Origin: Escherichia phage vB_EcoS_HdK1 | Reading direction: 5' to 3' (one strand) | Sequence record: MK373794.1 | DNA: 64,000 bases | Part shown: one piece after another, positions 1 through 64,000 of the stretch | Numbering within the stretch: the first letter of the stretch is position 1 | Layout of the letters: the number at the start of each line of letters is the position of its first letter | The notes under the pieces: generated by a model | Seen by the model: only the letters and a program-made list of their open reading frames with translations | Told to the model about the DNA's origin: nothing | Database searches by the model: none | Position numbers and translations under genes: made by a program

Positions 1-105
1 TTTATATAAATACACACATATACACATTTTTACCTTATTTTTCATGCACTTACCTCCTTTCATTTCGTATATTAAGCGACAATATACGAGCAATATAAGA
101 AATAT

Positions 106-119
106 TTGTTGCGCAACAA
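106..119. repeat. Perfect 14-bp palindrome TTGTTGCGCAACAA in the non-coding control region (second copy at 60798..60811)
   Basis: Read directly from the sequence; lies in the ~1.07-kb non-coding region spanning 60336..60692 and 1..678. Confidence 0.6.
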
Positions 120-617
120 CGAGGCGCTCACAAGCTCGCGCACGCGCATAATGCGGGCACGCGGTCTAACACAAAAGAAAATTGAATTGCAAGCGATTTT
201 TGCTGAGGTAACTCTCGAAGCGAAAGCGATTTGCGAGTTTGAAATTTTGTAGCCCGAAAACGATTCTATTTTATGGTATAAATGTCGGATTTTTCGGTGA
301 AAGGTGGCTTTTCGGTGAGGTTGGGTGGCTGGGATCGGTGTAACTGGTAGCCCATAAAGCGAAAATAGCCGCGAAAACGGGGCACGCAGCGCGATTAAAT
401 GGTTGGATCAGTGTAAGGGTGGCGGTGAGGGGGCGAAAATGCCGCAAAATCGCTTACAGGGATGCAGGGAGTGGGCCGCTGTAAGGGCGTATAAGGCGAT
501 TAAATTGGAGTCTATGGTAATGTATGGAAGATGGATTTAGGCTCTTAGAGCGCGAATGGTGGAGCTATGGGTGAGGAATATGTGGTCAGCAGGGTAGCGC
601 GGGAGGTTATGCAGGTA

Positions 618-660
618 CAAAAACGAAAGCGCCCCGTTGGACTTCAACAGGGCGCGGATT
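618..660 (-). terminator. Rho-independent terminator ending the leftward early operon
   Basis: GC-rich inverted repeat GCGCCC..GGGCGC directly downstream of the stop of the 679..927 gene; on the minus strand it is followed by a T-rich tract. Confidence 0.55.
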
Positions 661-678
661 GTATAATGCTTTTAGAAG

Positions 679-927
679 TTATTTACTAGTTAATAATACC
701 GCCCAGGTATTATCTGGAAGCGTACCAACTCCGAGTATCTTAAACTGAAGCGACTTGTTCTGCATGTTGTAGTTGTCGAGTAACTCCTGGGCAGCCGCAG
801 CAGCGTTCGCTTCACCGTTCAGGTTGTAGTCGTTTGCAGTTATTGCACACATACCGAGACCGACCGCTTTGAAGCGCATACCTTTGGATTGAGTCGGTGC
901 AAGTGCTTTAACATGGATAGCGTTCAT
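679..927 (-). CDS. Hypothetical early protein, 82 aa (paralog family A)
   Basis: ORF track; shares an AAAA(Q/E)EL..F(K/E)ILG/SGG..P(D)..(W/Y)A pattern with the 1458..1703 product. Confidence 0.5.
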   Translation of the reverse strand: MNAIHVKALAPTQSKGMRFKAVGLGMCAITANDYNLNGEANAAAAAQELLDNYNMQNKSLQFKILGVGTLPDNTWAVLLTSK

Positions 928-956
928 ATTATTTATCTCCGTTACAATTTGAAAGG

Positions 957-1220
957 TTAGCAGTTTTTTAACAGGTTGATGAAGCCCACCAGCGTGGACG
1001 CTGTTGCAACCAGGCGGCCCATAGTATGCAGTTCCGCGTAAACTTTACCGTCGTCAAACACAGTTAAATAAACGTTAAGACCATTGCAACGGACGCGATA
1101 TTTGCGCGAGTTATTACCAAAAGTTTCCAGCTCTGCGGTGATAGTCGCAAGATTAGCTATACGTTTGCCGATAATGCGGCGAGTGATAGTGGACTGGTTT
1201 AATACTGTAGACATAATCAT
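957..1220 (-). CDS. Hypothetical early protein, 87 aa (paralog family B)
   Basis: ORF track; N-terminal motif STITRRIIGKRI matches SQITKRIIGKRL of the 2529..2835 product; AGAGG ribosome-binding site upstream. Confidence 0.5.
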   Translation of the reverse strand: MIMSTVLNQSTITRRIIGKRIANLATITAELETFGNNSRKYRVRCNGLNVYLTVFDDGKVYAELHTMGRLVATASTLVGFINLLKNC

Positions 1221-1245
1221 TTCCTCTGTTAACTATGCGAAGTGC

Positions 1246-1274
1246 ATATTATTGCCCACTGTTACTATGGGCAA
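1246..1274 (-). promoter_or_regulatory. Sigma70-like promoter (minus strand: -35 TTGCCC, 17-bp spacer, -10 TAATAT) overlapped by an inverted repeat (candidate operator)
   Basis: Hexamers and spacing read from the reverse complement; inverted repeat TTGCCCA-N9-TGGGCAA at 1252..1274 covers the -35 box and spacer; lies 26 bp upstream of the 957..1220 start. Confidence 0.45.
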
Positions 1275-1282
1275 TGTATATG

Positions 1283-1447
1283 TCACTCAGCGGACACATA
1301 TTCTAACGCTTCTGATAGTGTAGCGAAGTAACCATCGCTCACCAGATTAATAGCGTACTCAAGTTGATCGCGGGTCAGGTTGCGAAACTTGTTACGGATG
1401 TGATAGCAACGACCGCGATAAATAACCTGGAAATAGTTGCGTTCCAT
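1283..1447 (-). CDS. Hypothetical small protein, 54 aa
   Basis: Internal ATG of the 1283..1603 track ORF preceded by AAGGGG; the longer track ORF would overlap the neighbouring gene. Confidence 0.4.
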   Translation of the reverse strand: MERNYFQVIYRGRCYHIRNKFRNLTRDQLEYAINLVSDGYFATLSEALEYVSAE

Positions 1448-1457
1448 AATTATCCCC

Positions 1458-1703
1458 TTATGCAACGATGAACGCGTAACCGCTTTGATCCGGGAGTTCA
1501 CCACCGGAAAGAATTTCAAACTCAACGCCCGCTTTATCGCTGAACTTTTTGATAAGCTCTTCCGCTGCGGCGCGGTGGTTGCCGTAAACACCAAGATCGT
1601 CACGCCACGTGATAGTCAAGGAGCCGTTCCAACCTGTTGCTTTTACGCGCGGGTTACGGGTGGCAGTCGGGTTCATGAATTTTGTGATGATAGCTTGAGC
1701 CAT
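1458..1703 (-). CDS. Hypothetical early protein, 81 aa (paralog family A)
   Basis: ORF track; paralogous to the 679..927 product. Confidence 0.5.
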   Translation of the reverse strand: MAQAIITKFMNPTATRNPRVKATGWNGSLTITWRDDLGVYGNHRAAAEELIKKFSDKAGVEFEILSGGELPDQSGYAFIVA

Positions 1704-1708
1704 GATAA

Positions 1709-1894
1709 TTACTCCGGTAAAATTACAGTGACGTTAATATTTGCAAGGCGAGCGCACTCGCGGAAACCTTTTACATAAGCATCCATTTCGTCATAGGATG
1801 CGAAAGTTGCGTCCGGGACTGGTCCGTTGTTAATATTCACGCAATATTCGTGTTCGTCCAGGTCAACCCAACAAGTCAGAACGATAGTTTCCAT
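1709..1894 (-). CDS. Hypothetical small protein, about 61 aa
   Basis: Internal ATG (METIVL..) preceded by GGAGGG; acidic, Cys-containing. Confidence 0.4.
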   Translation of the reverse strand: METIVLTCWVDLDEHEYCVNINNGPVPDATFASYDEMDAYVKGFRECARLANINVTVILPE

Positions 1895-1972
1895 ATTATT
1901 TGCCCTCCGTATAATACAGACCCGCAACTATTGGAGCTCCGAAAACTAAGAAAGCTAATAAATAGAACATAA

Positions 1973-2452
1973 TTAGTTACCCCCTTTATTGTTGAGCCCG
2001 TTGAATTTACGCCATGCGTAGAATTCAATCGTTGCATTATTAATATTCCAACCATTAGCTTTCGCAAGGTCACGGACGTTACCAATAGTTGGCACACCAT
2101 CAGGCAACATATTATCCAGGGCATTCCAAACGTCTGCGCATTTACCTTTAATCGGGCGACGAACCCCGTTGCGCGTTTCGCTGCGCGTTTTGCTCTTGGC
2201 TGGAGCGACCGGAGCTTGTTGTGTGGTCACTTCCACGACAGTCGCTTTATCAGCTTCCACCAGATCGCTAGCTGCCTTATTAACCGCGCTTTCGCTGTAC
2301 CAGTAGCGACCACCGTCTTCGTGCGGTTCCTGGTGAATAAAGCTATTTGCTGTCGCAGTGTCCACATCCAGAACCTTTTTTAAGGCACGGCGAGCGTTAG
2401 ACATAGTGGCGAAGAAGCGAGCGTCTTTTGCTACGCGAGTGATAGTAACCAT
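1973..2452 (-). CDS. Hypothetical early protein, about 159 aa
   Basis: ORF track; start placed at the ATG preceded by GGAGAT; no recognisable catalytic motif. Confidence 0.45.
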   Translation of the reverse strand: MVTITRVAKDARFFATMSNARRALKKVLDVDTATANSFIHQEPHEDGGRYWYSESAVNKAASDLVEADKATVVEVTTQQAPVAPAKSKTRSETRNGVRRPIKGKCADVWNALDNMLPDGVPTIGNVRDLAKANGWNINNATIEFYAWRKFNGLNNKGGN

Positions 2453-2492
2453 TGTGAATATCTCCATGTTGTTCTAGCGGATTGCTAGTGGG

Positions 2493-2513
2493 AGCCCACT
2501 GTTACAATGGGCA
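2493..2513. repeat. Second copy of the conserved inverted-repeat element GCCCACTGTTAC(A/T)ATGGGCAA
   Basis: Near-identical to 1252..1274; both sit in intergenic gaps between leftward early genes. Confidence 0.55.
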
Positions 2514-2528
2514 ACCATTAGCACGCTA

Positions 2529-2835
2529 TTATTGTTGAATAGCTTTATCTATCATTGCGATGAAGCAGAACACAGACCAAAGGCTATTCGCTTGGCATAC
2601 TGCGCGACCATACATTACGCTATAAGAGCTGACAGTACCGTCCTCGTTAATGCGAATATATAACGCGGTGCTGGAATACTTTTCGTTGCCCGGGAGCATT
2701 ACTAAATACTCGTCGAAACCCCAATCCCCGTCGACTTTTTCCGCAGTAAGGCCCAGTTGGTGCAGTCGCTTGCCAATAATGCGCTTAGTAATCTGAGATT
2801 GGGACATGGAACGCGGTAAGTAGATAATGGACATA
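2529..2835 (-). CDS. Hypothetical early protein, about 102 aa (paralog family B)
   Basis: ORF track; start placed at the ATG preceded by AAGGGAG; paralogous to the 957..1220 product. Confidence 0.5.
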
Positions 2836-2909
2836 ATGCAATCTCCCTTCGGGTGAGGCGGGCGCGGAACCCGTGTCCCGCTTAACAACCCCCTTAACCC
2901 TACACAGTT

Positions 2910-2938
2910 ATAGTATGACAACGGGGTATCAGATGCAA
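2910..2938 (-). promoter_or_regulatory. Sigma70-like early promoter for the leftward operon (minus strand: -35 TTGCAT, 17 bp, -10 TACTAT)
   Basis: Hexamers and spacing read from the reverse complement, about 75 bp upstream of the first leftward gene. Confidence 0.4.
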
Positions 2939-3014
2939 CTATTATCTGCAATATTTTAGAACTTTTTTAGTTGTGTTTCATAATAATAACATCCGGGACT
3001 ATGCGGTAGATGGT

Positions 3015-3088
3015 GTGCCGGAAATACCAGGTAGCGCGAGCGTGCCGAAAATACCAGGTAACAGCACGCGCCGAACATACCAGGTAGC
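3015..3088. repeat. Three tandem ~27-bp iteron-like repeats (core ATACCAGGTA) followed by an AT-rich tract; candidate origin or protein-binding array (second copy 63707..63780)
   Basis: GTGCCGGAAATACCAGGTAGC / GTGCCGAAAATACCAGGTAAC / CGCCGAACATACCAGGTAGC read directly; AT-rich stretch at about 3130..3230. Confidence 0.55.
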
Positions 3089-3476
3089 ACATACATAGAC
3101 AGCACATAGTGGGCAGGTGGATAGTAACAGATGCAATTATACTGGACGGTACAGTATAGTCATGTAATAGATAGCATACTAATTAAATAAAAAATAATAA
3201 CGCGTGTAACAATAAACAACGTTACAGTAGAGCGCGCAACAGTCACATGACGTAACAATCACCTCACTGACGATCACGGGACGTTATAGTAACGCCGCGG
3301 GGCGGCTCTTAGATCTCTGCCAAGGATTCTAGACGTAAACATTGAATCGCCACTAGACTATTTACATCACAACCTCACTCCTCACACAATAATACATAGA
3401 ATTTAAATCCGTATATAAATACTCGAGATAGTATCTACATATTCGAGGATGAGTGCTCAATCATTGTAGGTTATAA

Positions 3477-3956
3477 ATGCGTATCAATTGGTGTGATTAT
3501 TTCTCTTACGAAGATGGTAGACTTTACTGGAAGGCCAGTAGAGGAAGAATACGAGTAGGTTCAGAAGCCGGAAGCGAGGACCAACAAGGTTACATTGTGG
3601 TCAGGTTAAACGGGAAAGATTATAAAGCCCACCGCATCATTTGGGAAATGCACTATGGGCCGATACCAGAAGGAATGGAAGTTGACCACATTTGGCATAA
3701 CCGAAAAGATAACCGGATTGAGAATCTGCGGTTAGTGACGCGTACAGGTAATGGGCGTAATCAGTCTAAATTTGCGACAAATACATCAGGTGTAACTGGT
3801 GTGAATTGGAATAGCCGGGCTGGTAAATGGAGAGCGGAAATTTATGTTGATGGAAAGCATATATCTCTTGGTTTATTCACAATCTTTAATGATGCTGTCT
3901 TAGCGCGTAAATCGGCCGAGGCTAAGTATGGTTTCCATAAAAATCATGGCGAGTGA
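3477..3956 (+). CDS. HNH endonuclease with a C-terminal AP2-like DNA-binding domain (homing-endonuclease type)
   Basis: HNH motif region AHRIIWEMHYGPIPEGMEVDHIWHNRKDNRIENLRLV, then a GVTGV..W.A.I pattern typical of AP2 domains. Confidence 0.8.
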   Translation: MRINWCDYFSYEDGRLYWKASRGRIRVGSEAGSEDQQGYIVVRLNGKDYKAHRIIWEMHYGPIPEGMEVDHIWHNRKDNRIENLRLVTRTGNGRNQSKFATNTSGVTGVNWNSRAGKWRAEIYVDGKHISLGLFTIFNDAVLARKSAEAKYGFHKNHGE

Positions 3957-4016
3957 GCATGTTAATCAACTTGCGTATCCTGTTATAGTTATTCCGTTAA
4001 CGTTAAAGGGGTTTAT

Positions 4017-5163: not shown

Positions 5164-5517
5164 ATGAGCTTGCAACGTTTTGACAATGCAGAACTCGCGT
5201 GTGAATTTGCAAAGCGCAAGTTCGCTAAAACAGGTACGCCGCGATGCGTGCACGCGGCTATTGGGCAAAATGGGGCAAAGTATTGGTACGTTGGTACAGT
5301 AGCTCAGATCAAGCGAAGATTCGCGACTACGCTCGAAATGCGCCGGCTTGGGTCCCCTACACTTGTACGAAACAGGCACTTGGATAAAGAGGAAATTTAT
5401 CAATTTCTCAGAAATTACACTGGTAAAGAGAATAGATTTCAGGTTGCAGCGAAAGAGTTTAATATTGGTCTTTCCACTGCTTATAAAATTTATCACATAT
5501 ATGGGCGTTTAATATGA
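5164..5517 (+). CDS. Hypothetical protein with a C-terminal helix-turn-helix-like segment
   Basis: Segment AAKEFNIGLSTAYKIY fits an HTH pattern. Confidence 0.35.
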   Translation: MSLQRFDNAELACEFAKRKFAKTGTPRCVHAAIGQNGAKYWYVGTVAQIKRRFATTLEMRRLGSPTLVRNRHLDKEEIYQFLRNYTGKENRFQVAAKEFNIGLSTAYKIYHIYGRLI

Positions 5518-27825: not shown

Positions 27826-30800
27826 ATGGCAATTCGTTTACAAGGTATTTTAGTTGATGGATTGAATAAACCAATCGTCAACGCAAACGTGTTCTTACTT
27901 GCACGAAGCAATACTATTGTAGTTCTAGGTGGAAGTAAAGCGGTATTTAAGACTGATTCGCAAGGTGCTTACGACGTCACAGTGAACACCGGCCACTATG
28001 TGGTTATCATTGGGCCAGAAGGTAAGGAACCGTATAAAGCGGGTGACATTGTAATCTATGCGGATAGCCAGAACGGTTCACTTAACGCATATCTTACTAA
28101 ATGGGCTCCAGAAGAAACCACACCTGAAATACTTCAGGGAAATAAAGCAACTGGTGTCTAACTCTGAGCAATTTGCATTGCAGGCGTCTGAATCCGCTGC
28201 TAATGCTAAGAAGAGTGAGCTTAACGCAGAGACAAGTAAAAACTCTGCTGCAACGGATGCAGCGTCAGCTCTGCTGTCAAAACAGGAATCTGCTGCTAGT
28301 GCGTCTTCCGCATTGCAATCCAAGAACGCTGCGGCTGGTTCTGCTACATCAGCTCAACAAGCTCTTACTGCTGTGCAAGGACTCAAGGCTGAAGTCCAGC
28401 AATTAAAAACCGACACGCAGCATATTAAAGAAGAGGGTGTCGCTGAAGTAACAGCTCTCAAGAATGCTGCAACTACTTCGGCCAACAATGCTAAAGCATC
28501 AGAAACTGCATCTGCTAATAATGCGACTTTGGCTGATACTAAAGCAAAGGAAGCGTCTGTAAGTGCAACCACCGCTAATCAAGCGAAAGTAGCTGCTGAG
28601 GCAGCAAAGGCCGCATCCGAAGCAAGTGCAGTTGAGTCCGCTACTTCTGCCGGTAAATCGCAGACCGCAGCTAATGCAGCTAAGGCAAGTGAGACGGTTG
28701 CAACACAGAAGGCAGCTTCGGCGTCTACGTCTGAAACTAATGCGGCAGCTTCCGCTCAGACTGCGACTAACAAAGCTGGTGAGTCCGCCGCTAGTGCTAC
28801 CGCAGCTAAGGCAAGCGAAACTAATGCTAAAACTTCAGAAACTAATGCTGGTACATCAGCTGGAAGATCTGAGTCTGCTGCTTTACGCTCAGAAGCTGCT
28901 GCCCAACGTGCGGAAGACATTGCTGATGCAATTGGTCTTGAAGATGCAACTTTAACTGTTAAAGGTATCGTTCGTCTTAGCAATGATACTAACAGCACTG
29001 CTGAAAACCTGGCAGCTACGCCAAAGGCTGTTAAAACAGTCATGGACGTTGCTAATACTAAAGCTCCGTCAAATAGTCCTGTTCTAACTGGCGTACCAAC
29101 GGCACCAACTCCAGCACCTGAAGTTAATAACAATCAGATTGCCACAACTCAGTTTGTACACCAAATTATAAGCGCACTGATTGGTGATGCACCAGACGCG
29201 TTAAACACTCTGAAAGAGTTAGCTGACGCTCTTGGTGATGATCCGAATTTTGCAACGACGATAACCACACTTATTAACAGTAAGTTGGCTAAAGATCAAA
29301 ATGGTGCTGACATTCCTAATAAGCAACTGTTCATTGATAACGTTGGTCTACGTGAGACTGTCAACTTAGCTCTCGGTGCATTGAAGAAGAACCAAAACGG
29401 TGCAGATATACCGGATAAAGGTGTCTTCCTTAATAACATCAATGCTGCCAGCAAGACGGATATGGCCGCCAAGAAAGGTATGAGATATACTGTGGTCAAT
29501 GCCCCAGCGGGAGTTGAAGCAGGTAAGTTTTATCCTGTTGCGATTCGTCGTTCTTCTGGATTCAGCAGTGAATTAGCATCCAGGGTGACAATAAGTACAG
29601 GTTCAAGAACGGGAAACCATAGGTTGAACAACTGCGAGTTCAATGGTTTTGTTATGACTGGTGGTTGGACTGACAGGGGACGTTATGCTTATGGAATGTT
29701 CCACGCATATACTGCAAATGAACGTGCTATTCATTCCATTCTGATGAGTAATAAAGATGATGATCTGTGCTCTGTGTTCTATGTCGAAGGTGAAGCGTTC
29801 CCTATCTCTGTATATGTAGAAGAAGGTTTATCTGTTGTTGCACCATCTGCCGACTATGTTGTCGGACAAACGACTTACAAATGGGGTGCTACAGACCCTG
29901 GAACAGAATGCGTGGCCGCTGAAACTGTACTTAATTTCTCCAATGGTAGAGGATTCTATAGTTCGCACGCACTCCTCACAAATGCGGATATTAGTGGCAA
30001 TAAAATTTACGCCAACGGTGAAATCGTAGCTCGCGGTGAGAATCAAGTTCGCATGATTGGTGGGGACTACGGTGCGTTATGGCGTAACGACGGTGCCAAG
30101 ACCTATCTCTTATTTACCGCTAAAGGCGATCAATACGGTGGTTGGAACGATTTAAGACCATTTATGATTGATAACGCTACTGGTGAGTTTACCATCGGTA
30201 CTAAATTGAACGCCGGTCAAGGTGTGAATGGTAACGCATCCAGTGCTACTAAGTTACAAACAGCGCGTAAAATTGGTGGCGCCTCATTTGATGGTACTGC
30301 TGACGTCAATCTTCCAGGCGTTAACATTCAGGGTAATCAGAACACAACTGGTAATGCGGCAACTGCCACCAAACTACAGACAGCACGTAGGATTGCCAAT
30401 GTGCCTTTTGATGGTAGTGGCGATATATCGATTCCAGCTAGAAACGTGAATGCGTTTGCGTTAGGTTTGACTCAAATAGTACAAGATCCAGAAGATGGAA
30501 ATCTATCTAATGGTGTACCTTGGAATGCTATAACCGGTGTTTACAGACAACAAGGTATAGGAGCCTCTAATATTGTTGCTCATTTTTGTGATGGTGGTGG
30601 TTCAACACCTTCTTTGCAGATAAGAGCTATGTATAGGAATGGTGGTCTTTGGTATCGTACATCACGTGATGGTTATGGTTTTGAAGAAAACTGGGATCAA
30701 ATTTACACTAAAAAGAACCCGCCTCCGGCTGGCGAAACCTTACCTGTAGGTGTTCCATTACCGTGGCCCACGGATACACCTCCGTCCGGTTATATTGTAA

Positions 30801-42548: not shown

Positions 42549-43379
42549 ACAGATTACTCTGCAGTTTTCTGAGACGGAATTTCTACGTTAGCGGCCGCTT
42601 GTGCAATATTAGCAGGTACTGGAACGGATACGCGACCAGTAATGCCCATGTATTTCTTCCAGCGAGCGTATTCCGCTTTAACGTTGGCTTCGTTCAGGCC
42701 TTTGTCCAGTGCAACAGGCCAGAACGTAGCTGATCGGTGCAGTCTGCCCCAGCTCCAGGGTCACAGCGTCAAAGATATCCCATGCAGCACGGCACAGAGT
42801 ACCAACACCAGGCTTGCGAATACCGTTCTGTTCAGGCTCTTTCTTAGCTTCGCGTTCTGCTGCTTTACGAGCACGCTCTTCGTCCTGCAGACGTTTCTTC
42901 TCAGCGCGTTGTGCGTCACGTTTCGCTTTTTCAGCGGCCTTAGTGGCTTCGCGGGCAGCGGATACACGACCTTTAACATCTTTCAGAGTGGATTCAATGG
43001 AGGAAACCAGATCTTCAGATGCTGCAACGGCAGTTTTCAGCTGATCGTTGTCTTTAACTTTACGTGCTGCCGCTTTAACAGCTTTCAGACCTTCTTTAGC
43101 GGTCTTCAGCTGAGCGGTAACTACGCCTTCAACTGCTTTAACTTCGTCCAGCAATGAACCTTCGTTCAGGGTCGCGAACTGTTCTTTAACAGCGGACGTA
43201 GCACCTTCGATCACATTGTAACCGGCAGTGGCTTCGTTCATTGCGGCGTCAACTTTAGCCTGCAATTCACGTGCTGCTTTTTCTTCAGCTTCACGTTTTT
43301 TCTTTGCTTCAGCTTCTTTTGCTGCTTTCTTTGCTGCTTCTTCTGCTTCCAGTTGTTCTGGAGTTTTCTCTTTAGCCAT
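42549..43379 (-). CDS. Lys/Ala/Glu-rich protein (histone-like N-terminus), with an apparent frameshift near 42725
   Basis: Track ORF 42678..43379; an alternate frame continues plausibly (..ALDKGLNEANVKAEYARWKKYMGITGRV..) to a stop near 42549. Confidence 0.4.
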
Positions 43380-54610: not shown

Positions 54611-54636
54611 ATGGGCGCATATAGCGCCCATTTTTT
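54611..54636. terminator. Terminator after the plus-strand moron (also downstream of the primase-like gene end)
   Basis: ATGGGCGC..GCGCCCAT stem followed by TTTTTT. Confidence 0.6.
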
Positions 54637-57201
54637 ATAACTTAATAACTTCGTTCATTCTCTCAATATCTACCAAATAACACTTCATTCTCGGTGGTGT
54701 AAACTCTGCGCCGAAGAAATTTGAAAAGTCCATTGGCCTCATCTCGGTAAGAACTTCCATAGACATCAAACCATAGATTGTATTGTCTATGACCTGTAGG
54801 ATGTTGTCATTTCTTGTCTGTTTAAAAGCCTTGAACTGGCGACATACTGTGCATAGATCACTCCTTGTGACAATAAATGCGTCCTTAAACATGGGAAACC
54901 GTTTATATACACCAGCTTTAACTTCACCATCCAAGAACTTCTTAATGGAGTTCAGCATTATCTTCTCACGACTTGTACTGTCCGTAGAACCAATCTGCCC
55001 ACTGTTACGCTTCTCTAAGAAACGCTCGTTACCCTGATCGATAAATGACTCAGCCCAACGATAATGTTCCATAGTGACAACAGGACGCTCACTGTTATCT
55101 GCAACAGCAAGAAGAGAAGCTATACGCAATACCTTCAACGCCTTCCTTGTGTACATCTGACGAATTACTTCGTCTTGCACCTGCTCACCATCATTGCCGC
55201 TGTTCAGGAACTTCGCAACAATATTATCAAGATTATCAAACGCTTCGTGTACCTCTGCTTCCATTTCAACATAACACGGAGCAGTCCCTGACATAATACG
55301 CACAGCTTGTTTATAGATAGCTCCAATAGTGCGCAGTATTGCTTCTGGATATTCCAGGAGCATACTCTTATTCATCAATGGGCGGTTAGCTGTACATTCC
55401 CATGCGATAATACGGGACATGAAACCACTCGACATCATGCGGTCATCTACGTTCCCGTAAAATTCATCTGGTGTTGTTTCACCTGCAAAACTATACGCCT
55501 TAACCTTACCGCCAGCAGTCGTATTATCTTTACTAGAGTGCTTTGAACCACCAGAGAAAGCATAGAAATGCCCCTTGTCATAAAGGGAAAGCATTTCATC
55601 CATAATGTCTTTAGCTTTACCGACTTCCATCTTACCGTTACGGAAAAAATGCACCGACTTCAGTCTTATAGTTAATGGATGAGCCACAAGACATAACGGA
55701 CGTATCCATTATGACATCCTTGCGCAATGCAGCATCAGACGCATAGGTACTTGTATCCAAGACACGTTCGATACCAAATATCTGCTGACCGTCTTGACCG
55801 CCATAATTGGATACTTGAGAAAAAAAAGAATAGTTTCAATGTTGGAGCGAAACGCTTCTTTACCAATACCAGAACGTGCAATTAGTACAAAGTAGTTATT
55901 CAAACCACTTCGTGTGACTGTGTTCCACGCCTTACCGCACATACCACTAAATAAAGCAAGCGCAGACAGAATACTAATGTCTTTAATAGGCAACAAGCTC
56001 GCTTTATACATATTACGCGCAACCTCGCCCATAAAGCCCGGAGGCCAAGCCAAACCGTCTGCCTGCTCTTCAGTGTAATTACCATCTGTAGTCAACACTT
56101 CTTCAGGTGGGCGTTCTGGTGTAGTTGCTTGACGTAGTTTTTCCGTGCGCTCTATAGCTGCATTAACGTTATTCTGAACTATCTGCATAAGTCCCATAGA
56201 TTTAACATGGGCATCGTAGCGATAGTTGCGAATCATTCTATCCAGGTGGTACGGACGTTTAATTTTTTCACCAGGCATACGACGGGGAATCATCGTAACG
56301 GCTACTCATTGGTGAATACATGAATAGACGTCTTACCTGGAAATTGTACTTACTCTTAAAGCAAAGAAAGTCAATTAATGCAAATTCTGCTTCAGACTGA
56401 GAAGGGAAACAACGTTCACCGATTAGAAGTATCAACTTCTTCAGCTCTCCAACGACCCTCCCATAGCTGCTTAAACAATGTTCCGTTTTCTTGTTCGCAC
56501 AACTGAATATAGACATCCTGGTCTTCCATTGCATATGGGTCGTTACTAAAATCTTCTTCAGTAAGTTCCAGCATTTGGAAGCCATCAGACTCATTAATCT
56601 CACTCATCTCAGACATAAGTTGGATGAATGAGATTAGCGATATACCCTTCGCTTTCACTGCCTGGAGCACCAGACACAGTGCGCGGGAGTAAAGTAACAT
56701 CCCAGTGATCCCCTGTACAGATAATAAAACGATACTGGGAATACACTTCCACACCGTCACGGCGCTTACCAGCCTGAGGGGATGGAATAAATCCATGTGT
56801 GCAACCCATCACCGCTTCTGGAAATTTCCGTATAGCTATGGAAACGATTCAACAATCTTCTTATATCGCTCACCAGCAACTTTCTTTTCCATTTCAGACA
56901 TGGTATCTTTAATGTCCATGTCGATACAACAGAACGGGTCACTTGGAAGTAGATAGAAACCTAAACGCAAGTTATGACCAATCTCGTTATAATAACGAAC
57001 GCAGCGTTCAGCATCTTCAAAAGACATAAGTAAATGCAGGTTAGACGGTTTCTTATCATTACCGTCTTTACGAAGTGGGACCATATCCCCTAAATCATCG
57101 TCCCATACATAAGGTTGTTTTTCTGATGATGTACCCGGATGGAAACCGCAGACAGCCCACTGTTCGTATTGTTTAATTTCTTGAGGAAAAAGTTCCAGCA
57201 T
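54635..57201 (-). CDS. Putative bifunctional DNA primase-polymerase (AEP-type N-terminal domain plus C-terminal domain), fragmented into at least five ORFs by apparent frameshifts
   Basis: Track ORFs 54635..55687, 55709..56293, 56416..56796 and 56836..57201 plus alternate-frame readings form one continuous coding region; AEP-like motifs CIDMD and RSGDGLH; frame changes at plus-strand A6 (55645..55650) and A8 (55821..55828) runs. Confidence 0.45.
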
Positions 57202-59446: not shown

Positions 59447-60335
59447 TTCCTCCAGATATCACGCGATTCTTTAATACGGATGTTATACCGTATAAGTTGC
59501 TGCATAACTTTATGCAGGTCATCGAGATGCTTCCTTAAACGAAGACGTTTCTTGATAGCCCACAAGTTCTTCATATCCGTTCGTTGGAGATCCTCCCTTA
59601 AATACAATGAAAAGTCAGTCTGGTGATCTAAGATAAATTGGATACGCATCAAAGTATCCGACTTACGATAATCAGGATACCACTTAGGAAGCACATCTTG
59701 TTCGCCAATCATCTTACGCTCCAAACTGATCAATGTATTCAATGAGCTCTTGCAATTCTTGCTGTAACTGCACATTACCACTATTATTCGTCTGAAGTCT
59801 AACGAGGCGTTCCTTGATATGTGCAATGTGGTTAGTGCCCATCCGACGCTTCTGTACATCACACCAGCGAACAACACCATCTTCAATATATGCACGACGG
59901 GCTTTACCACGCGGGTATCGCAGCGGCGCCGAATTTCACACTTATCGCCCACCCACTTAAAGCCCAGGATCATAACAGCGTTACCTTCCGTATCAGGACA
60001 CACGTCAAAACAACTGTTGAACCCTTTACTGCGCATATACTCGTCGAGCGGAATCACCTTATCAGGCGACAACCATTGATACCCGAAGTAAATATCGACA
60101 GTGAACACCGTACCCAACATCGGAGCCGACCAGCACATATACATCCGCCCGTCATCCAACTTCTTGACCGCATTCGGCCCGCAACACGAGGCCAGCCGCC
60201 TTCCACGCTTTGACCACATTAATCGTGTTGTCCTGCTCCTGAAAGATTGCGTCTGCCTGCATATATGTAGGCGCGTCCCAGCCCGAACATTTCCTTTACA
60301 TGAGCATTAGTGATTTTAACCTTTTGATTGCGCAT
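59443..60335 (-). CDS. First gene of the leftward replication-block operon; hypothetical, with apparent internal frameshifts
   Basis: ATG at 60335 preceded by AGGTGAGG; protein-like reading switches frame at least twice before joining track ORF 59443..60219. Confidence 0.3.
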
Positions 60336-60414
60336 AACCTCACCTTTGATGATAATAAATCGATTAATTTTGAAATTCAGTTGCCGGTTTTATGTTTATT
60401 TTACGCAATGTGTT

Positions 60415-60545
60415 TTGCAATACAATATTGATATATTTTGTTTTTGCATTGCAATGTTTTTGTATTGCAAAAATTACAACAGTCTGAAGGTGAGAAATTG
60501 CAAATTTATAAAGATTGGTGAAAAAATGCACAATTTATAAAGATT
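60415..60545. promoter_or_regulatory. Early control region with four ATTGCAA/TTGCAAT half-site motifs (one perfect palindrome ATTGCAAT at 60448..60455) and a 14-bp direct repeat AATTTATAAAGATT (60503..60516 and 60532..60545)
   Basis: Motifs read directly from the sequence in the AT-rich region upstream of the leftward replication operon. Confidence 0.45.
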
Positions 60546-61309
60546 CAGCAATATACGAAACGGCGAAGCGAAGTGTATGAAAAATAAGGGAAAATTTCGA
60601 GAGTTGGGAGGTTTGTAGTGATTTATATTATTTATAAAGGGGTCTCGTGGGGTCGTCAGTAGACAACTCAAAAATAAAAAATCTTTATAAAATTTATATA
60701 AATACACACATATACACATTTTTACCTTATTTTTCATGCACTTACCTCCTTTCATTTCGTATATTAAGCGACAATATACGAGCAATATAAGAAATATTTG
60801 TTGCGCAACAACGAGGCGCTCACAAGCTCGCGCACGCGCATAATGCGGGCACGCGGTCTAACACAAAAGAAAATTGAATTGCAAGCGATTTTTGCTGAGG
60901 TAACTCTCGAAGCGAAAGCGATTTGCGAGTTTGAAATTTTGTAGCCCGAAAACGATTCTATTTTATGGTATAAATGTCGGATTTTTCGGTGAAAGGTGGC
61001 TTTTCGGTGAGGTTGGGTGGCTGGGATCGGTGTAACTGGTAGCCCATAAAGCGAAAATAGCCGCGAAAACGGGGCACGCAGCGCGATTAAATGGTTGGAT
61101 CAGTGTAAGGGTGGCGGTGAGGGGGCGAAAATGCCGCAAAATCGCTTACAGGGATGCAGGGAGTGGGCCGCTGTAAGGGCGTATAAGGCGATTAAATTGG
61201 AGTCTATGGTAATGTATGGAAGATGGATTTAGGCTCTTAGAGCGCGAATGGTGGAGCTATGGGTGAGGAATATGTGGTCAGCAGGGTAGCGCGGGAGGTT
61301 ATGCAGGTA

Positions 61310-61352
61310 CAAAAACGAAAGCGCCCCGTTGGACTTCAACAGGGCGCGGATT
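61310..61352 (-). terminator. Second copy of the early-operon terminator (same as 618..660)
   Basis: Within the terminal duplication. Confidence 0.55.
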
Positions 61353-61370
61353 GTATAATGCTTTTAGAAG

Positions 61371-61619
61371 TTATTTACTAGTTAATAATACCGCCCAGGT
61401 ATTATCTGGAAGCGTACCAACTCCGAGTATCTTAAACTGAAGCGACTTGTTCTGCATGTTGTAGTTGTCGAGTAACTCCTGGGCAGCCGCAGCAGCGTTC
61501 GCTTCACCGTTCAGGTTGTAGTCGTTTGCAGTTATTGCACACATACCGAGACCGACCGCTTTGAAGCGCATACCTTTGGATTGAGTCGGTGCAAGTGCTT
61601 TAACATGGATAGCGTTCAT
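61371..61619 (-). CDS. Duplicate of the 679..927 gene (paralog family A)
   Basis: Identical translation in the ORF track. Confidence 0.5.
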   Translation of the reverse strand: MNAIHVKALAPTQSKGMRFKAVGLGMCAITANDYNLNGEANAAAAAQELLDNYNMQNKSLQFKILGVGTLPDNTWAVLLTSK

Positions 61620-61648
61620 ATTATTTATCTCCGTTACAATTTGAAAGG

Positions 61649-61912
61649 TTAGCAGTTTTTTAACAGGTTGATGAAGCCCACCAGCGTGGACGCTGTTGCA
61701 ACCAGGCGGCCCATAGTATGCAGTTCCGCGTAAACTTTACCGTCGTCAAACACAGTTAAATAAACGTTAAGACCATTGCAACGGACGCGATATTTGCGCG
61801 AGTTATTACCAAAAGTTTCCAGCTCTGCGGTGATAGTCGCAAGATTAGCTATACGTTTGCCGATAATGCGGCGAGTGATAGTGGACTGGTTTAATACTGT
61901 AGACATAATCAT
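61649..61912 (-). CDS. Duplicate of the 957..1220 gene (paralog family B)
   Basis: Identical translation in the ORF track. Confidence 0.5.
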   Translation of the reverse strand: MIMSTVLNQSTITRRIIGKRIANLATITAELETFGNNSRKYRVRCNGLNVYLTVFDDGKVYAELHTMGRLVATASTLVGFINLLKNC

Positions 61913-61974
61913 TTCCTCTGTTAACTATGCGAAGTGCATATTATTGCCCACTGTTACTATGGGCAATGTATATG

Positions 61975-62139
61975 TCACTCAGCGGACACATATTCTAACG
62001 CTTCTGATAGTGTAGCGAAGTAACCATCGCTCACCAGATTAATAGCGTACTCAAGTTGATCGCGGGTCAGGTTGCGAAACTTGTTACGGATGTGATAGCA
62101 ACGACCGCGATAAATAACCTGGAAATAGTTGCGTTCCAT
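61975..62139 (-). CDS. Duplicate of the 1283..1447 gene
   Basis: Within the terminal duplication. Confidence 0.4.
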   Translation of the reverse strand: MERNYFQVIYRGRCYHIRNKFRNLTRDQLEYAINLVSDGYFATLSEALEYVSAE

Positions 62140-62149
62140 AATTATCCCC

Positions 62150-62395
62150 TTATGCAACGATGAACGCGTAACCGCTTTGATCCGGGAGTTCACCACCGGA
62201 AAGAATTTCAAACTCAACGCCCGCTTTATCGCTGAACTTTTTGATAAGCTCTTCCGCTGCGGCGCGGTGGTTGCCGTAAACACCAAGATCGTCACGCCAC
62301 GTGATAGTCAAGGAGCCGTTCCAACCTGTTGCTTTTACGCGCGGGTTACGGGTGGCAGTCGGGTTCATGAATTTTGTGATGATAGCTTGAGCCAT
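62150..62395 (-). CDS. Duplicate of the 1458..1703 gene
   Basis: Identical translation in the ORF track. Confidence 0.5.
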   Translation of the reverse strand: MAQAIITKFMNPTATRNPRVKATGWNGSLTITWRDDLGVYGNHRAAAEELIKKFSDKAGVEFEILSGGELPDQSGYAFIVA

Positions 62396-62400
62396 GATAA

Positions 62401-62586
62401 TTACTCCGGTAAAATTACAGTGACGTTAATATTTGCAAGGCGAGCGCACTCGCGGAAACCTTTTACATAAGCATCCATTTCGTCATAGGATGCGAAAGTT
62501 GCGTCCGGGACTGGTCCGTTGTTAATATTCACGCAATATTCGTGTTCGTCCAGGTCAACCCAACAAGTCAGAACGATAGTTTCCAT
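62401..62586 (-). CDS. Duplicate of the 1709..1894 gene
   Basis: Within the terminal duplication. Confidence 0.4.
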   Translation of the reverse strand: METIVLTCWVDLDEHEYCVNINNGPVPDATFASYDEMDAYVKGFRECARLANINVTVILPE

Positions 62587-62664
62587 ATTATTTGCCCTCC
62601 GTATAATACAGACCCGCAACTATTGGAGCTCCGAAAACTAAGAAAGCTAATAAATAGAACATAA

Positions 62665-63144
62665 TTAGTTACCCCCTTTATTGTTGAGCCCGTTGAATTT
62701 ACGCCATGCGTAGAATTCAATCGTTGCATTATTAATATTCCAACCATTAGCTTTCGCAAGGTCACGGACGTTACCAATAGTTGGCACACCATCAGGCAAC
62801 ATATTATCCAGGGCATTCCAAACGTCTGCGCATTTACCTTTAATCGGGCGACGAACCCCGTTGCGCGTTTCGCTGCGCGTTTTGCTCTTGGCTGGAGCGA
62901 CCGGAGCTTGTTGTGTGGTCACTTCCACGACAGTCGCTTTATCAGCTTCCACCAGATCGCTAGCTGCCTTATTAACCGCGCTTTCGCTGTACCAGTAGCG
63001 ACCACCGTCTTCGTGCGGTTCCTGGTGAATAAAGCTATTTGCTGTCGCAGTGTCCACATCCAGAACCTTTTTTAAGGCACGGCGAGCGTTAGACATAGTG
63101 GCGAAGAAGCGAGCGTCTTTTGCTACGCGAGTGATAGTAACCAT
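62665..63144 (-). CDS. Duplicate of the 1973..2452 gene
   Basis: Identical translation in the ORF track. Confidence 0.45.
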   Translation of the reverse strand: MVTITRVAKDARFFATMSNARRALKKVLDVDTATANSFIHQEPHEDGGRYWYSESAVNKAASDLVEADKATVVEVTTQQAPVAPAKSKTRSETRNGVRRPIKGKCADVWNALDNMLPDGVPTIGNVRDLAKANGWNINNATIEFYAWRKFNGLNNKGGN

Positions 63145-63220
63145 TGTGAATATCTCCATGTTGTTCTAGCGGATTGCTAGTGGGAGCCCACTGTTACAAT
63201 GGGCAACCATTAGCACGCTA

Positions 63221-63527
63221 TTATTGTTGAATAGCTTTATCTATCATTGCGATGAAGCAGAACACAGACCAAAGGCTATTCGCTTGGCATACTGCGCGAC
63301 CATACATTACGCTATAAGAGCTGACAGTACCGTCCTCGTTAATGCGAATATATAACGCGGTGCTGGAATACTTTTCGTTGCCCGGGAGCATTACTAAATA
63401 CTCGTCGAAACCCCAATCCCCGTCGACTTTTTCCGCAGTAAGGCCCAGTTGGTGCAGTCGCTTGCCAATAATGCGCTTAGTAATCTGAGATTGGGACATG
63501 GAACGCGGTAAGTAGATAATGGACATA
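63221..63527 (-). CDS. Duplicate of the 2529..2835 gene
   Basis: Identical translation in the ORF track. Confidence 0.5.
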
Positions 63528-63706
63528 ATGCAATCTCCCTTCGGGTGAGGCGGGCGCGGAACCCGTGTCCCGCTTAACAACCCCCTTAACCCTACACAGT
63601 TATAGTATGACAACGGGGTATCAGATGCAACTATTATCTGCAATATTTTAGAACTTTTTTAGTTGTGTTTCATAATAATAACATCCGGGACTATGCGGTA
63701 GATGGT

Positions 63707-63780
63707 GTGCCGGAAATACCAGGTAGCGCGAGCGTGCCGAAAATACCAGGTAACAGCACGCGCCGAACATACCAGGTAGC
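63707..63780. repeat. Second copy of the three tandem iteron-like repeats (same as 3015..3088)
   Basis: Within the terminal duplication. Confidence 0.55.
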
Positions 63781-64000
63781 ACATACATAGACAGCACATA
63801 GTGGGCAGGTGGATAGTAACAGATGCAATTATACTGGACGGTACAGTATAGTCATGTAATAGATAGCATACTAATTAAATAAAAAATAATAACGCGTGTA
63901 ACAATAAACAACGTTACAGTAGAGCGCGCAACAGTCACATGACGTAACAATCACCTCACTGACGATCACGGGACGTTATAGTAACGCCGCGGGGCGGCTC

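Follow-up and report, generated by a model that had tools for sequence, protein, structure and literature searches.

What do three short tandem direct repeats do in the intergenic region between the divergent early genes of Escherichia phage vB_EcoS_HdK1 (MK373794.1)? A sequence-only reading had taken them for a replication origin or a multi-site protein-binding array. The window, i.e., the whole stretch of 64,000 nucleotides that was analysed, is a Nonagvirus (9g-like) genome; its DNA is 90–97% identical to that of the Nonagvirus phages 9g, JenK1, JenP1, JenP2, HdSG1, SE1, BRET, ESCO3, SP8, PD328, ChristophMerian and FritzHoffmann. The repeats (window coordinates) are as follows:

3014–3036, plus strand: repeat unit 1, TGTGCCGGAAATACCAGGTAGCG; core ATACCAGGTA at 3024–3033
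3041–3063, plus strand: repeat unit 2, CGTGCCGAAAATACCAGGTAACA; core at 3051–3060
3067–3089, plus strand: repeat unit 3, CGCGCCGAACATACCAGGTAGCA; core at 3077–3086
63706–63781, plus strand: duplicate of the entire array, within the right-hand direct terminal repeat

The presence of three tandem repeats at this place was confirmed by a repeat search (3014–3089, three 23-nt copies of 83–87% identity at a spacing of 27 and then 26 bp) and by TRF (period 26, 2.8 copies, score 97). They had been described as lying in phase with a 27-bp period; this is correct for the first interval, but the second is of 26 bp, and a spacing of about 2.5 helical turns places adjacent sites on opposite faces of the helix. 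Every core contains the dyad TACCWGGTA; the 5′ flank of the units, GYGCCGRAM, is asymmetric and partly conserved among them. Exact cores were found at 3024, 3051 and 3077, and further exact matches only in the duplicate (63716, 63743 and 63769); in the unique, non-duplicated genome the triple occurs once. At least three exact copies of any non-trivial 10-mer per 100 bp were observed in none of 200 dinucleotide shuffles, and the genome has only one other 10-mer cluster of this sort, a CTG-rich coding repeat at 47.7–47.9 kb. The array (57% GC) forms a GC-rich island flanked by two AT-rich tracts. No prior description of the repeats was found in a literature search on the motif and on Nonagvirus transcription and termini; the element is previously undescribed and of a familiar kind.

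Several candidate identities were rejected. A repeated peptide or coding repeat is ruled out by the 27/26 spacing, which shifts the frame, and by unstable ORFs; likewise the small peptides encoded across the array, some of which are annotated in SP8, ChristophMerian and FritzHoffmann, lie in shifting frames and are not conserved. CCAGG, the Dcm/EcoRII motif, is present in every core, but CCWGG is not avoided in the genome (125 sites vs 72 expected). The core is not Chi; true Chi sites, GCTGGTGG, lie elsewhere: 986–993 (and 61678–61685), 12645, 24293, 27633 and 58683, six in the window vs 1.25 expected and five in the unique genome, the terminal-repeat copies being the same site, whose orientation would let it act on RecBCD that comes in at the left end. 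A host regulon element in array form was discarded, no similar array being present in 5,426 E. coli genomes or in an enterobacterial species-level collection; a host factor binding single sites is possible. Matches in metagenomes and viral contigs outside Nonagvirus were unrelated coding repeats or single chance matches.

The position of the array relative to the DNA end was fixed as follows. Bases 1–3308 of the window are identical to 60693–64000 with no mismatch, i.e., they form a direct terminal repeat of ca. 3.3 kb, and the duplication of the array within it, claimed earlier, was borne out at 63706–63781. The record of HdSG1 carries its own direct terminal repeat (3363 bp) that ends with ...GCCGCGGGGCGGCTC, equivalent to window position 3308; its left start is equivalent to window position 60633, from which we infer that the true terminal repeat is 60633–64000 and that the window start trims about 60 bp from the left copy. 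In phage 9g a single sharp hot spot of read starts was observed at 28,243, from which the authors inferred a terminal repeat (PMC4276943); in GenBank coordinates this position maps exactly to window position 3308. The terminal repeat had been correctly recognised by the earlier reading; its right end is now set at 3308 by the HdSG1 repeat end and the 9g hot spot. The array lies 219–293 bp inside this boundary, and an equal distance separates its right-hand copy from the physical end of the virion DNA. The cut itself is surrounded by a conserved element:

3279–3329, no strand assigned: invariant block at the cut, 51 bp, unvarying in 12 of 12 aligned Nonagvirus genomes; ...GGGGCGGCTC / TTAGATC, cut after 3308

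The motif CACCTCAC occurs on both sides of the cut (3261–3268 and about 3373–3380), an arrangement also kept in the sister clade, 148 bp apart there; the 51-bp block and the flanking CACCTCAC motifs are likely a terminase recognition or cut signal.

The array is located in the only divergent control region of the genome. The neighbouring genes are:

2529–2834, minus strand: first gene of the leftward early operon, 101 aa, phrog_13865; inside the terminal repeat
1973–2467, minus strand: gene of a 164-aa two-domain early protein, conserved beside the region across Queuovirinae and related siphophages
3477–3956, plus strand: HNH homing endonuclease (HNH_3 and AP2-like domain), first rightward gene here; replaces the 95-aa gene of 9g

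The non-coding gap, put earlier at 520 bp, measures 525 bp only if the listed ORF is taken to begin at its upstream TTG; with the ATG at 2834, the start in the annotation of relatives, it extends over 642 bp (2835–3476). The leftward operon in the repeat comprises seven small genes of unknown function; a terminator is annotated after the last of them in HdSG1, and the operon is therefore a self-contained early unit. It holds two paralogous gene pairs (679–927 and 1458–1703, PHROG 3199; 957–1220 and 2529–2834, PHROG 13865), and its gene content varies among relatives. The rightward block begins with small genes, followed by lysis, terminase and structural genes; the DNA beside the HNH gene (3310–3470) differs from that of most relatives and is partly like the sister clade. 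The layout resembles the terminal repeat of T5, a long repeat that encloses a self-contained operon of small early genes and has repeat-rich non-coding DNA at its boundaries. There is no sequence or protein homology to T5, and Nonagvirus is not known to transfer its DNA in two steps; moreover, the injection-stop region of T5 is situated at the inner repeat boundary, which in Nonagvirus is 60330–61370 and not the array.

The following elements of the control region were predicted around the array:

2937–2995, no strand assigned: AT-rich tract left of the array; promoter-like hexamers on the plus strand at 2955–2984 (TTTAGA/CATAAT) and on the minus strand at 2981–2953 (ATGAAA/TAAAAT)
3170–3215, no strand assigned: AT-rich tract right of the array; 22% GC, 3178–3201 being 8% GC; immediately upstream of a leftward promoter-like site
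2910–2948, minus strand: candidate proximal leftward promoter; −35 TTGCAT (2938–2933), 17-nt spacer, −10 TACTAT (2915–2910)
3136–3163, minus strand: best-scoring leftward sigma-70-like site of the promoter scan; ATGACT, 16 nt, TATAAT, 10/12

An AT-rich stretch had been said to follow the repeats; the tract does exist (3149–3226 overall, 3170–3215 being in the lowest 0.23% of 46-nt windows), but it starts 80 bp past the last unit rather than abutting it. It forms the upstream element of the site at 3136–3163, which overlaps the conserved dyad TATACTGGAC/GTACAGTATA at 3138–3158 and which, if active, would transcribe through the array. In the 9g record a BPROM promoter is placed in the tract equivalent to 2937–2995. 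The candidate proximal promoter lies within the cross-clade conserved block GATGCAACTAWTATCT (2930–2948); in JenP1 the same place reads TTGCAT, 17 nt, TATTAT in surrounding DNA that is otherwise unrelated, which is read as selection for a promoter there. Altogether, 11 sigma-70-like sites were scored in 2400–3900 vs 3.5 ± 1.7 expected; the candidate promoters would start transcripts near 2903, 2946, 2991, 3129 or 3132. The 9g authors placed divergent promoters Pl and Pr in this region and noted a layout that 'evokes temperate phages', the repeats being unmentioned (PMC4276943). Repeated sites with a conserved core, as in an operator array, are thus found between or next to predicted promoters, given the cores, the predicted promoter enrichment and Pl/Pr of 9g. 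Unlike classical operators, the cores overlap no predicted −35 or −10 hexamer, which speaks somewhat against a regulatory array; core 3 ends 10 bp before a weak plus-strand −35 (TAGACA, 3096–3101; predicted).

Two further features of the region were recorded. The stretch 2840–2885, part of the 5′ leader that precedes the first leftward gene, is a conserved GC-rich hairpin region, CTCCCTTCGGGTGAGGCGGGCGCGGAACCCGTGTCCCGC; it shows no variation in relatives, JenP1 among them, and overlaps part of the ribosome-binding site. The sequence GTTAYAGTA occurs four times on the plus strand in 1.1 kb (2907–2915, 3221–3229, 3283–3291, 3982–3990), and genome-wide, at one mismatch or fewer, it gives 27 matches vs 17 expected; the JenP1 replacement segment is also rich in TATAGTAAC. 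GTTAYAGTA may be a −10-like promoter element.

Conservation of the array was assessed in 12 aligned Nonagvirus genomes over 496 intergenic columns. Variable columns: cores, 1 of 30; non-core part of the array, 11 of 46; array taken whole, 12 of 76; whole region, 73 of 496. The intergenic region is well conserved overall (85% of columns invariant), and the contrast between cores and spacers hangs on few substitutions (p of about 0.02, a rough estimate). The cores of units 2 and 3 are invariant in 12 of 12 phages and that of unit 1 in all but BRET, where one base differs. Within a single genome the three cores are identical and the 3′ spacers (GCGCGAGC, ACAGCAC and GCACATAC) have diverged; therefore the triplication is old and the cores have been held constant. 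By this pattern of substitutions the sites are under purifying selection relative to the spacers.

Eleven Nonagvirus genomes of the database have the same array, as do additional metagenomic contigs of this genus. A distant relative, L034 (60-kb contig; neighbour protein 62% identical), has one displaced unit, 18/18 nt GTGCCGAACATACCAGGT, at its positions 2795–2815; the unit sits in the same intergenic region within unalignable DNA, the identical 18 nt occur in unit 3, and the chance expectation for such a match is about 3e-8 (own estimate). In the sister clade (Ec1-ASingh, Klebsiella phage K9PH25C2 and contig L085), three 10-bp tandem repeats stand exactly at the array position, directly after a shared GGTAGAgGGT; they are of the type GCGCCTTACA, and CATACAGG-like in L085, where they read CGCCTACAGG GGCATACAGG GGCCTATAGG, resembling ATAC(C)AGG.

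The number of units differs in nature: three in most Nonagvirus genomes; one in the Nonagvirus contig L081 (IMGVR_UViG_3300000289_000015), where the array has collapsed to a single unit at 1035–1051; none in JenP1. In the related clade L033 the array is likewise without any unit. In JenP1 (L004/L032) the segment of about 2916–3110 is replaced by ca. 700 bp that contain an extra 102-aa gene and no ATACCAGGTA; the gene is an orphan, and the cassette also has a hairpin with a T-run behind it. The whole segment between the conserved blocks 2930–2948 and 3128–3150 is exchanged in JenP1 and different in the sister clades. At the cut after 3308, JenP1 still has the invariant block. Its small terminase subunit shows 98.9% identity, exactly as does that of JenP2, which bears the array, and its 25-kb replication/early module (99% coverage, 93.7% identity) is within the range of other members. 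Since the array is missing in JenP1 and reduced in L081, it is neither an essential origin for these replication proteins nor an essential site for this terminase; judged from these genomes, it is dispensable in nature.

Of the earlier alternative of origin or binding array, the second half gained support from the conservation data and the first half did not, in view of the skew, the relatives, the lack of DnaA and IHF sites in the region and the lack of an initiator gene among the neighbours scanned. The array would, as an origin, be a set of iterons bound by an initiator, e.g., a primase-helicase of P4-alpha size, that melts the nearby AT-rich tract. Direct repeats do stand near a tract of 22% GC, a DNA polymerase, a processivity factor and a primase-helicase (ca. 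790 aa, DUF3987 type) are all phage-encoded, the region is at the divergence point of two large transcription blocks, and on a coarse scale the sign of the GC skew switches close to the terminal repeat. The P4 protein of this primase-helicase type itself binds the origin repeats. The array also shares with iteron origins (lambda ori, P1 oriR, P4 ori/crr, iteron plasmids) direct repeats of ca. 20 bp, an AT-rich stretch nearby and a variable copy number. Nevertheless, such a role is unlikely. The cumulative GC skew, proposed earlier as a check, has its fine-scale minimum at 60344, about 3.4 kb from the array in the concatemer view, a weak test as phage skew also tracks transcription; the curve stays flat through the terminal repeat and does not climb again until after about 3500. 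Neither a DnaA box (allowing one mismatch) nor an IHF consensus was detected in 2800–3400, and no Rep-, O- or DnaA-like Pfam or PHROG match in ten neighbouring proteins; the primase-helicase is encoded about 8 kb away (concatemer view). The AT tract is just some 25–45 nt long, contains no 13-mer-like repeats and resembles the upstream part of a promoter. Iteron origins have three or more direct repeats of about 17–22 bp, usually at a period of about two turns (about 21–23 bp in the known iteron origins); here three 23-nt direct repeats are present and recur every 27/26 bp, i.e., about 2.5 turns. An adjacent AT-rich element with host-factor sites, an adjoining initiator gene, retention together with the replication proteins and a switch in strand composition, all expected of an iteron origin, are lacking in the array; JenP1 with its closely similar replication module has no unit, L081 has one and the L033 clade none. 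A better-looking candidate was found at 60330–60760 (30% GC, 16-bp and 29-bp repeats), which is nearly invariant even in JenP1.

This stretch is part of a non-coding region of about 1 kb, 60330–61370 (also 1–680), that straddles the left edge of the terminal repeat (60633, by comparison with HdSG1). Its left part carries the tandem repeats (16 bp × 2 at 60439; 29 bp × 2 at 60489), its right part (60960–61300) is strongly G-rich, and the region is almost invariant in JenP1, HdSG1 and ChristophMerian; on this evidence an origin, early promoters or packaging signals would sooner be sought there than in the array. The primase-helicase (PHROG 3022, 788-aa profile), located in 54635–56800, is split here into at least two ORFs (55709–56293 and 54635–55687); in relatives it is one annotated gene, or three pieces in SE1, and the split could be due to an interruption, a frameshift or a sequencing error.

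A part of the DNA-end machinery was considered as well, the units being either small-terminase sites that direct the cut at 3308 or sites of a protein by which the right end is protected or anchored as it enters. The short distance to a precisely defined repeat end speaks for this, and three sites with an AT-rich, possibly bent segment before the cut recall the cosN–cosB geometry; in cosB of lambda (R3-I1-R2-R1), three repeats are likewise found no more than about 300 bp from an exact terminase cut, and AT-rich DNA separates them from it. However, no co-variation of the array with the small terminase is seen, JenP1 having the same protein and cut block and no array; the array itself is not conserved across clades, and what is conserved across clades near the cut is other elements (CACCTCAC on both sides, TAACGCCGC...GGC.TC), so a packaging role is very unlikely. 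The idea of an RNA element, with the array in a structured 5′ leader or in a small RNA from a flanking promoter, is suggested by promoter-like sites on either side that point into the array and by palindromic cores that pair together in the predicted fold; it is highly improbable, as none of 41 predicted pairs shows a compensatory change (covariation term −0.26 kcal/mol), the substitutions in 9g, SP8 and JenP2 break the only local stem and are uncompensated, and no Rfam family was matched. It is rather doubtful, too, that the array has no function of its own, being a triplication by slippage or unequal exchange in a hypervariable spacer, kept through the close kinship of the genomes. Such an origin would agree with a whole array as variable as its surroundings, with unit numbers of 0, 1 and 3, and with the exchange of the segment in JenP1 and its difference in the sister clades; against it, substitutions avoid the cores both between phages and among the three copies in one genome, the identical 18-nt unit persists in distant L034 despite unalignable flanks, and three repeats are independently maintained at this position in the sister clade.

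The conservation of the cores, the 18-nt unit of L034 and the sister-clade repeats argue for a selected protein-binding site, and the three units probably bind a protein. All three would be recognised by a single sequence-specific DNA-binding protein, either an early protein of the phage or a factor of the host, each site being composed of the dyad and the asymmetric 5′ flank. On one side of the array is the leftward 'pre-early' operon in the repeat, and on the other the rightward block running to the lysis and structural genes; occupancy of the sites would tune one or both promoter sets through repression, activation or insulation. The array would be accessory rather than essential, with copy number shifting by unequal exchange between units, and its natural dispensability (JenP1 with 0 copies, L081 with 1) fits a modulator. 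Taken together, the most likely of the explanations considered is an accessory binding array of variable copy number through which the divergent early and rightward promoters are tuned, a reading held tentatively and at somewhat less than even confidence; the opposite-face spacing of 26–27 bp, unusual for cooperative activators, counts against it. The array resembles OR/OL of lambdoid phages in having three imperfect repeated sites with internal dyad symmetry, little over two turns apart, between divergent units. It differs in a symmetric core of 9–10 bp vs 17 bp in lambda operators, in being built of direct repeats with an asymmetric flank that avoid the predicted promoter hexamers, in having no adjacent repressor-like gene, and in belonging to a virulent phage in which the sites are naturally dispensable.

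Candidate binders for such a regulatory array were sought among the neighbouring genes, and no binder was identified. No Pfam DNA-binding domain above threshold was found in 10 proteins scanned (six of the leftward operon, four rightward). A 117-aa protein (5164–5517) of the rightward small genes gave a weak C-terminal HTH match, and its counterpart in K9PH25C2 is annotated as a late transcriptional activator. In the predicted structure of the 164-aa protein (N- and C-terminal domains confident; first eight residues and linker 76–94 not), the C-terminal domain is a three-helix bundle, weakly HTH-like; PDB sequence searches with this protein gave no match. The protein, which has roughly 260 metagenomic relatives, is one candidate binder only, and as JenP1 retains it (93.9% identity) without the array, it cannot be assigned to the array. 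No gene tracking the presence of the array was found among the small early genes compared across relatives: the first leftward gene is different in FritzHoffmann, the 87-aa paralogue is absent in 9g, and PD328, ESCO3 and BRET lack the first rightward gene, which is replaced in this genome. A 233-aa early protein (42678–43379) matches PHROG 11298 and 18634, as does the 164-aa protein, which suggests a second, related copy of the latter in the early region.

Nonagvirus and Seuratvirus are common phages of E. coli and Salmonella and are of interest for therapy, their deazaguanine-modified DNA resisting restriction. For this group, a single map of 500 bp joins the end of the terminal repeat, a promoter-dense control region and a selected three-site array, and so provides targets for experiment; the natural variants with 0, 1 and 3 copies are ready-made controls, and the search for the origin is steered from the array to the invariant AT-rich region at 60.3–60.8 kb. 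It is quite unlikely, on present evidence, that the array and its sister-clade counterparts are a fast-evolving operator, variable in copy number, of an undescribed regulator, with the 164-aa family favoured, that controls a T5-like 'pre-early' operon in the terminal repeat; if this were true, the regulator could decide whether lytic growth follows at once or the phage enters the stable carrier ('pseudolysogenic') state that has been reported for 9g.
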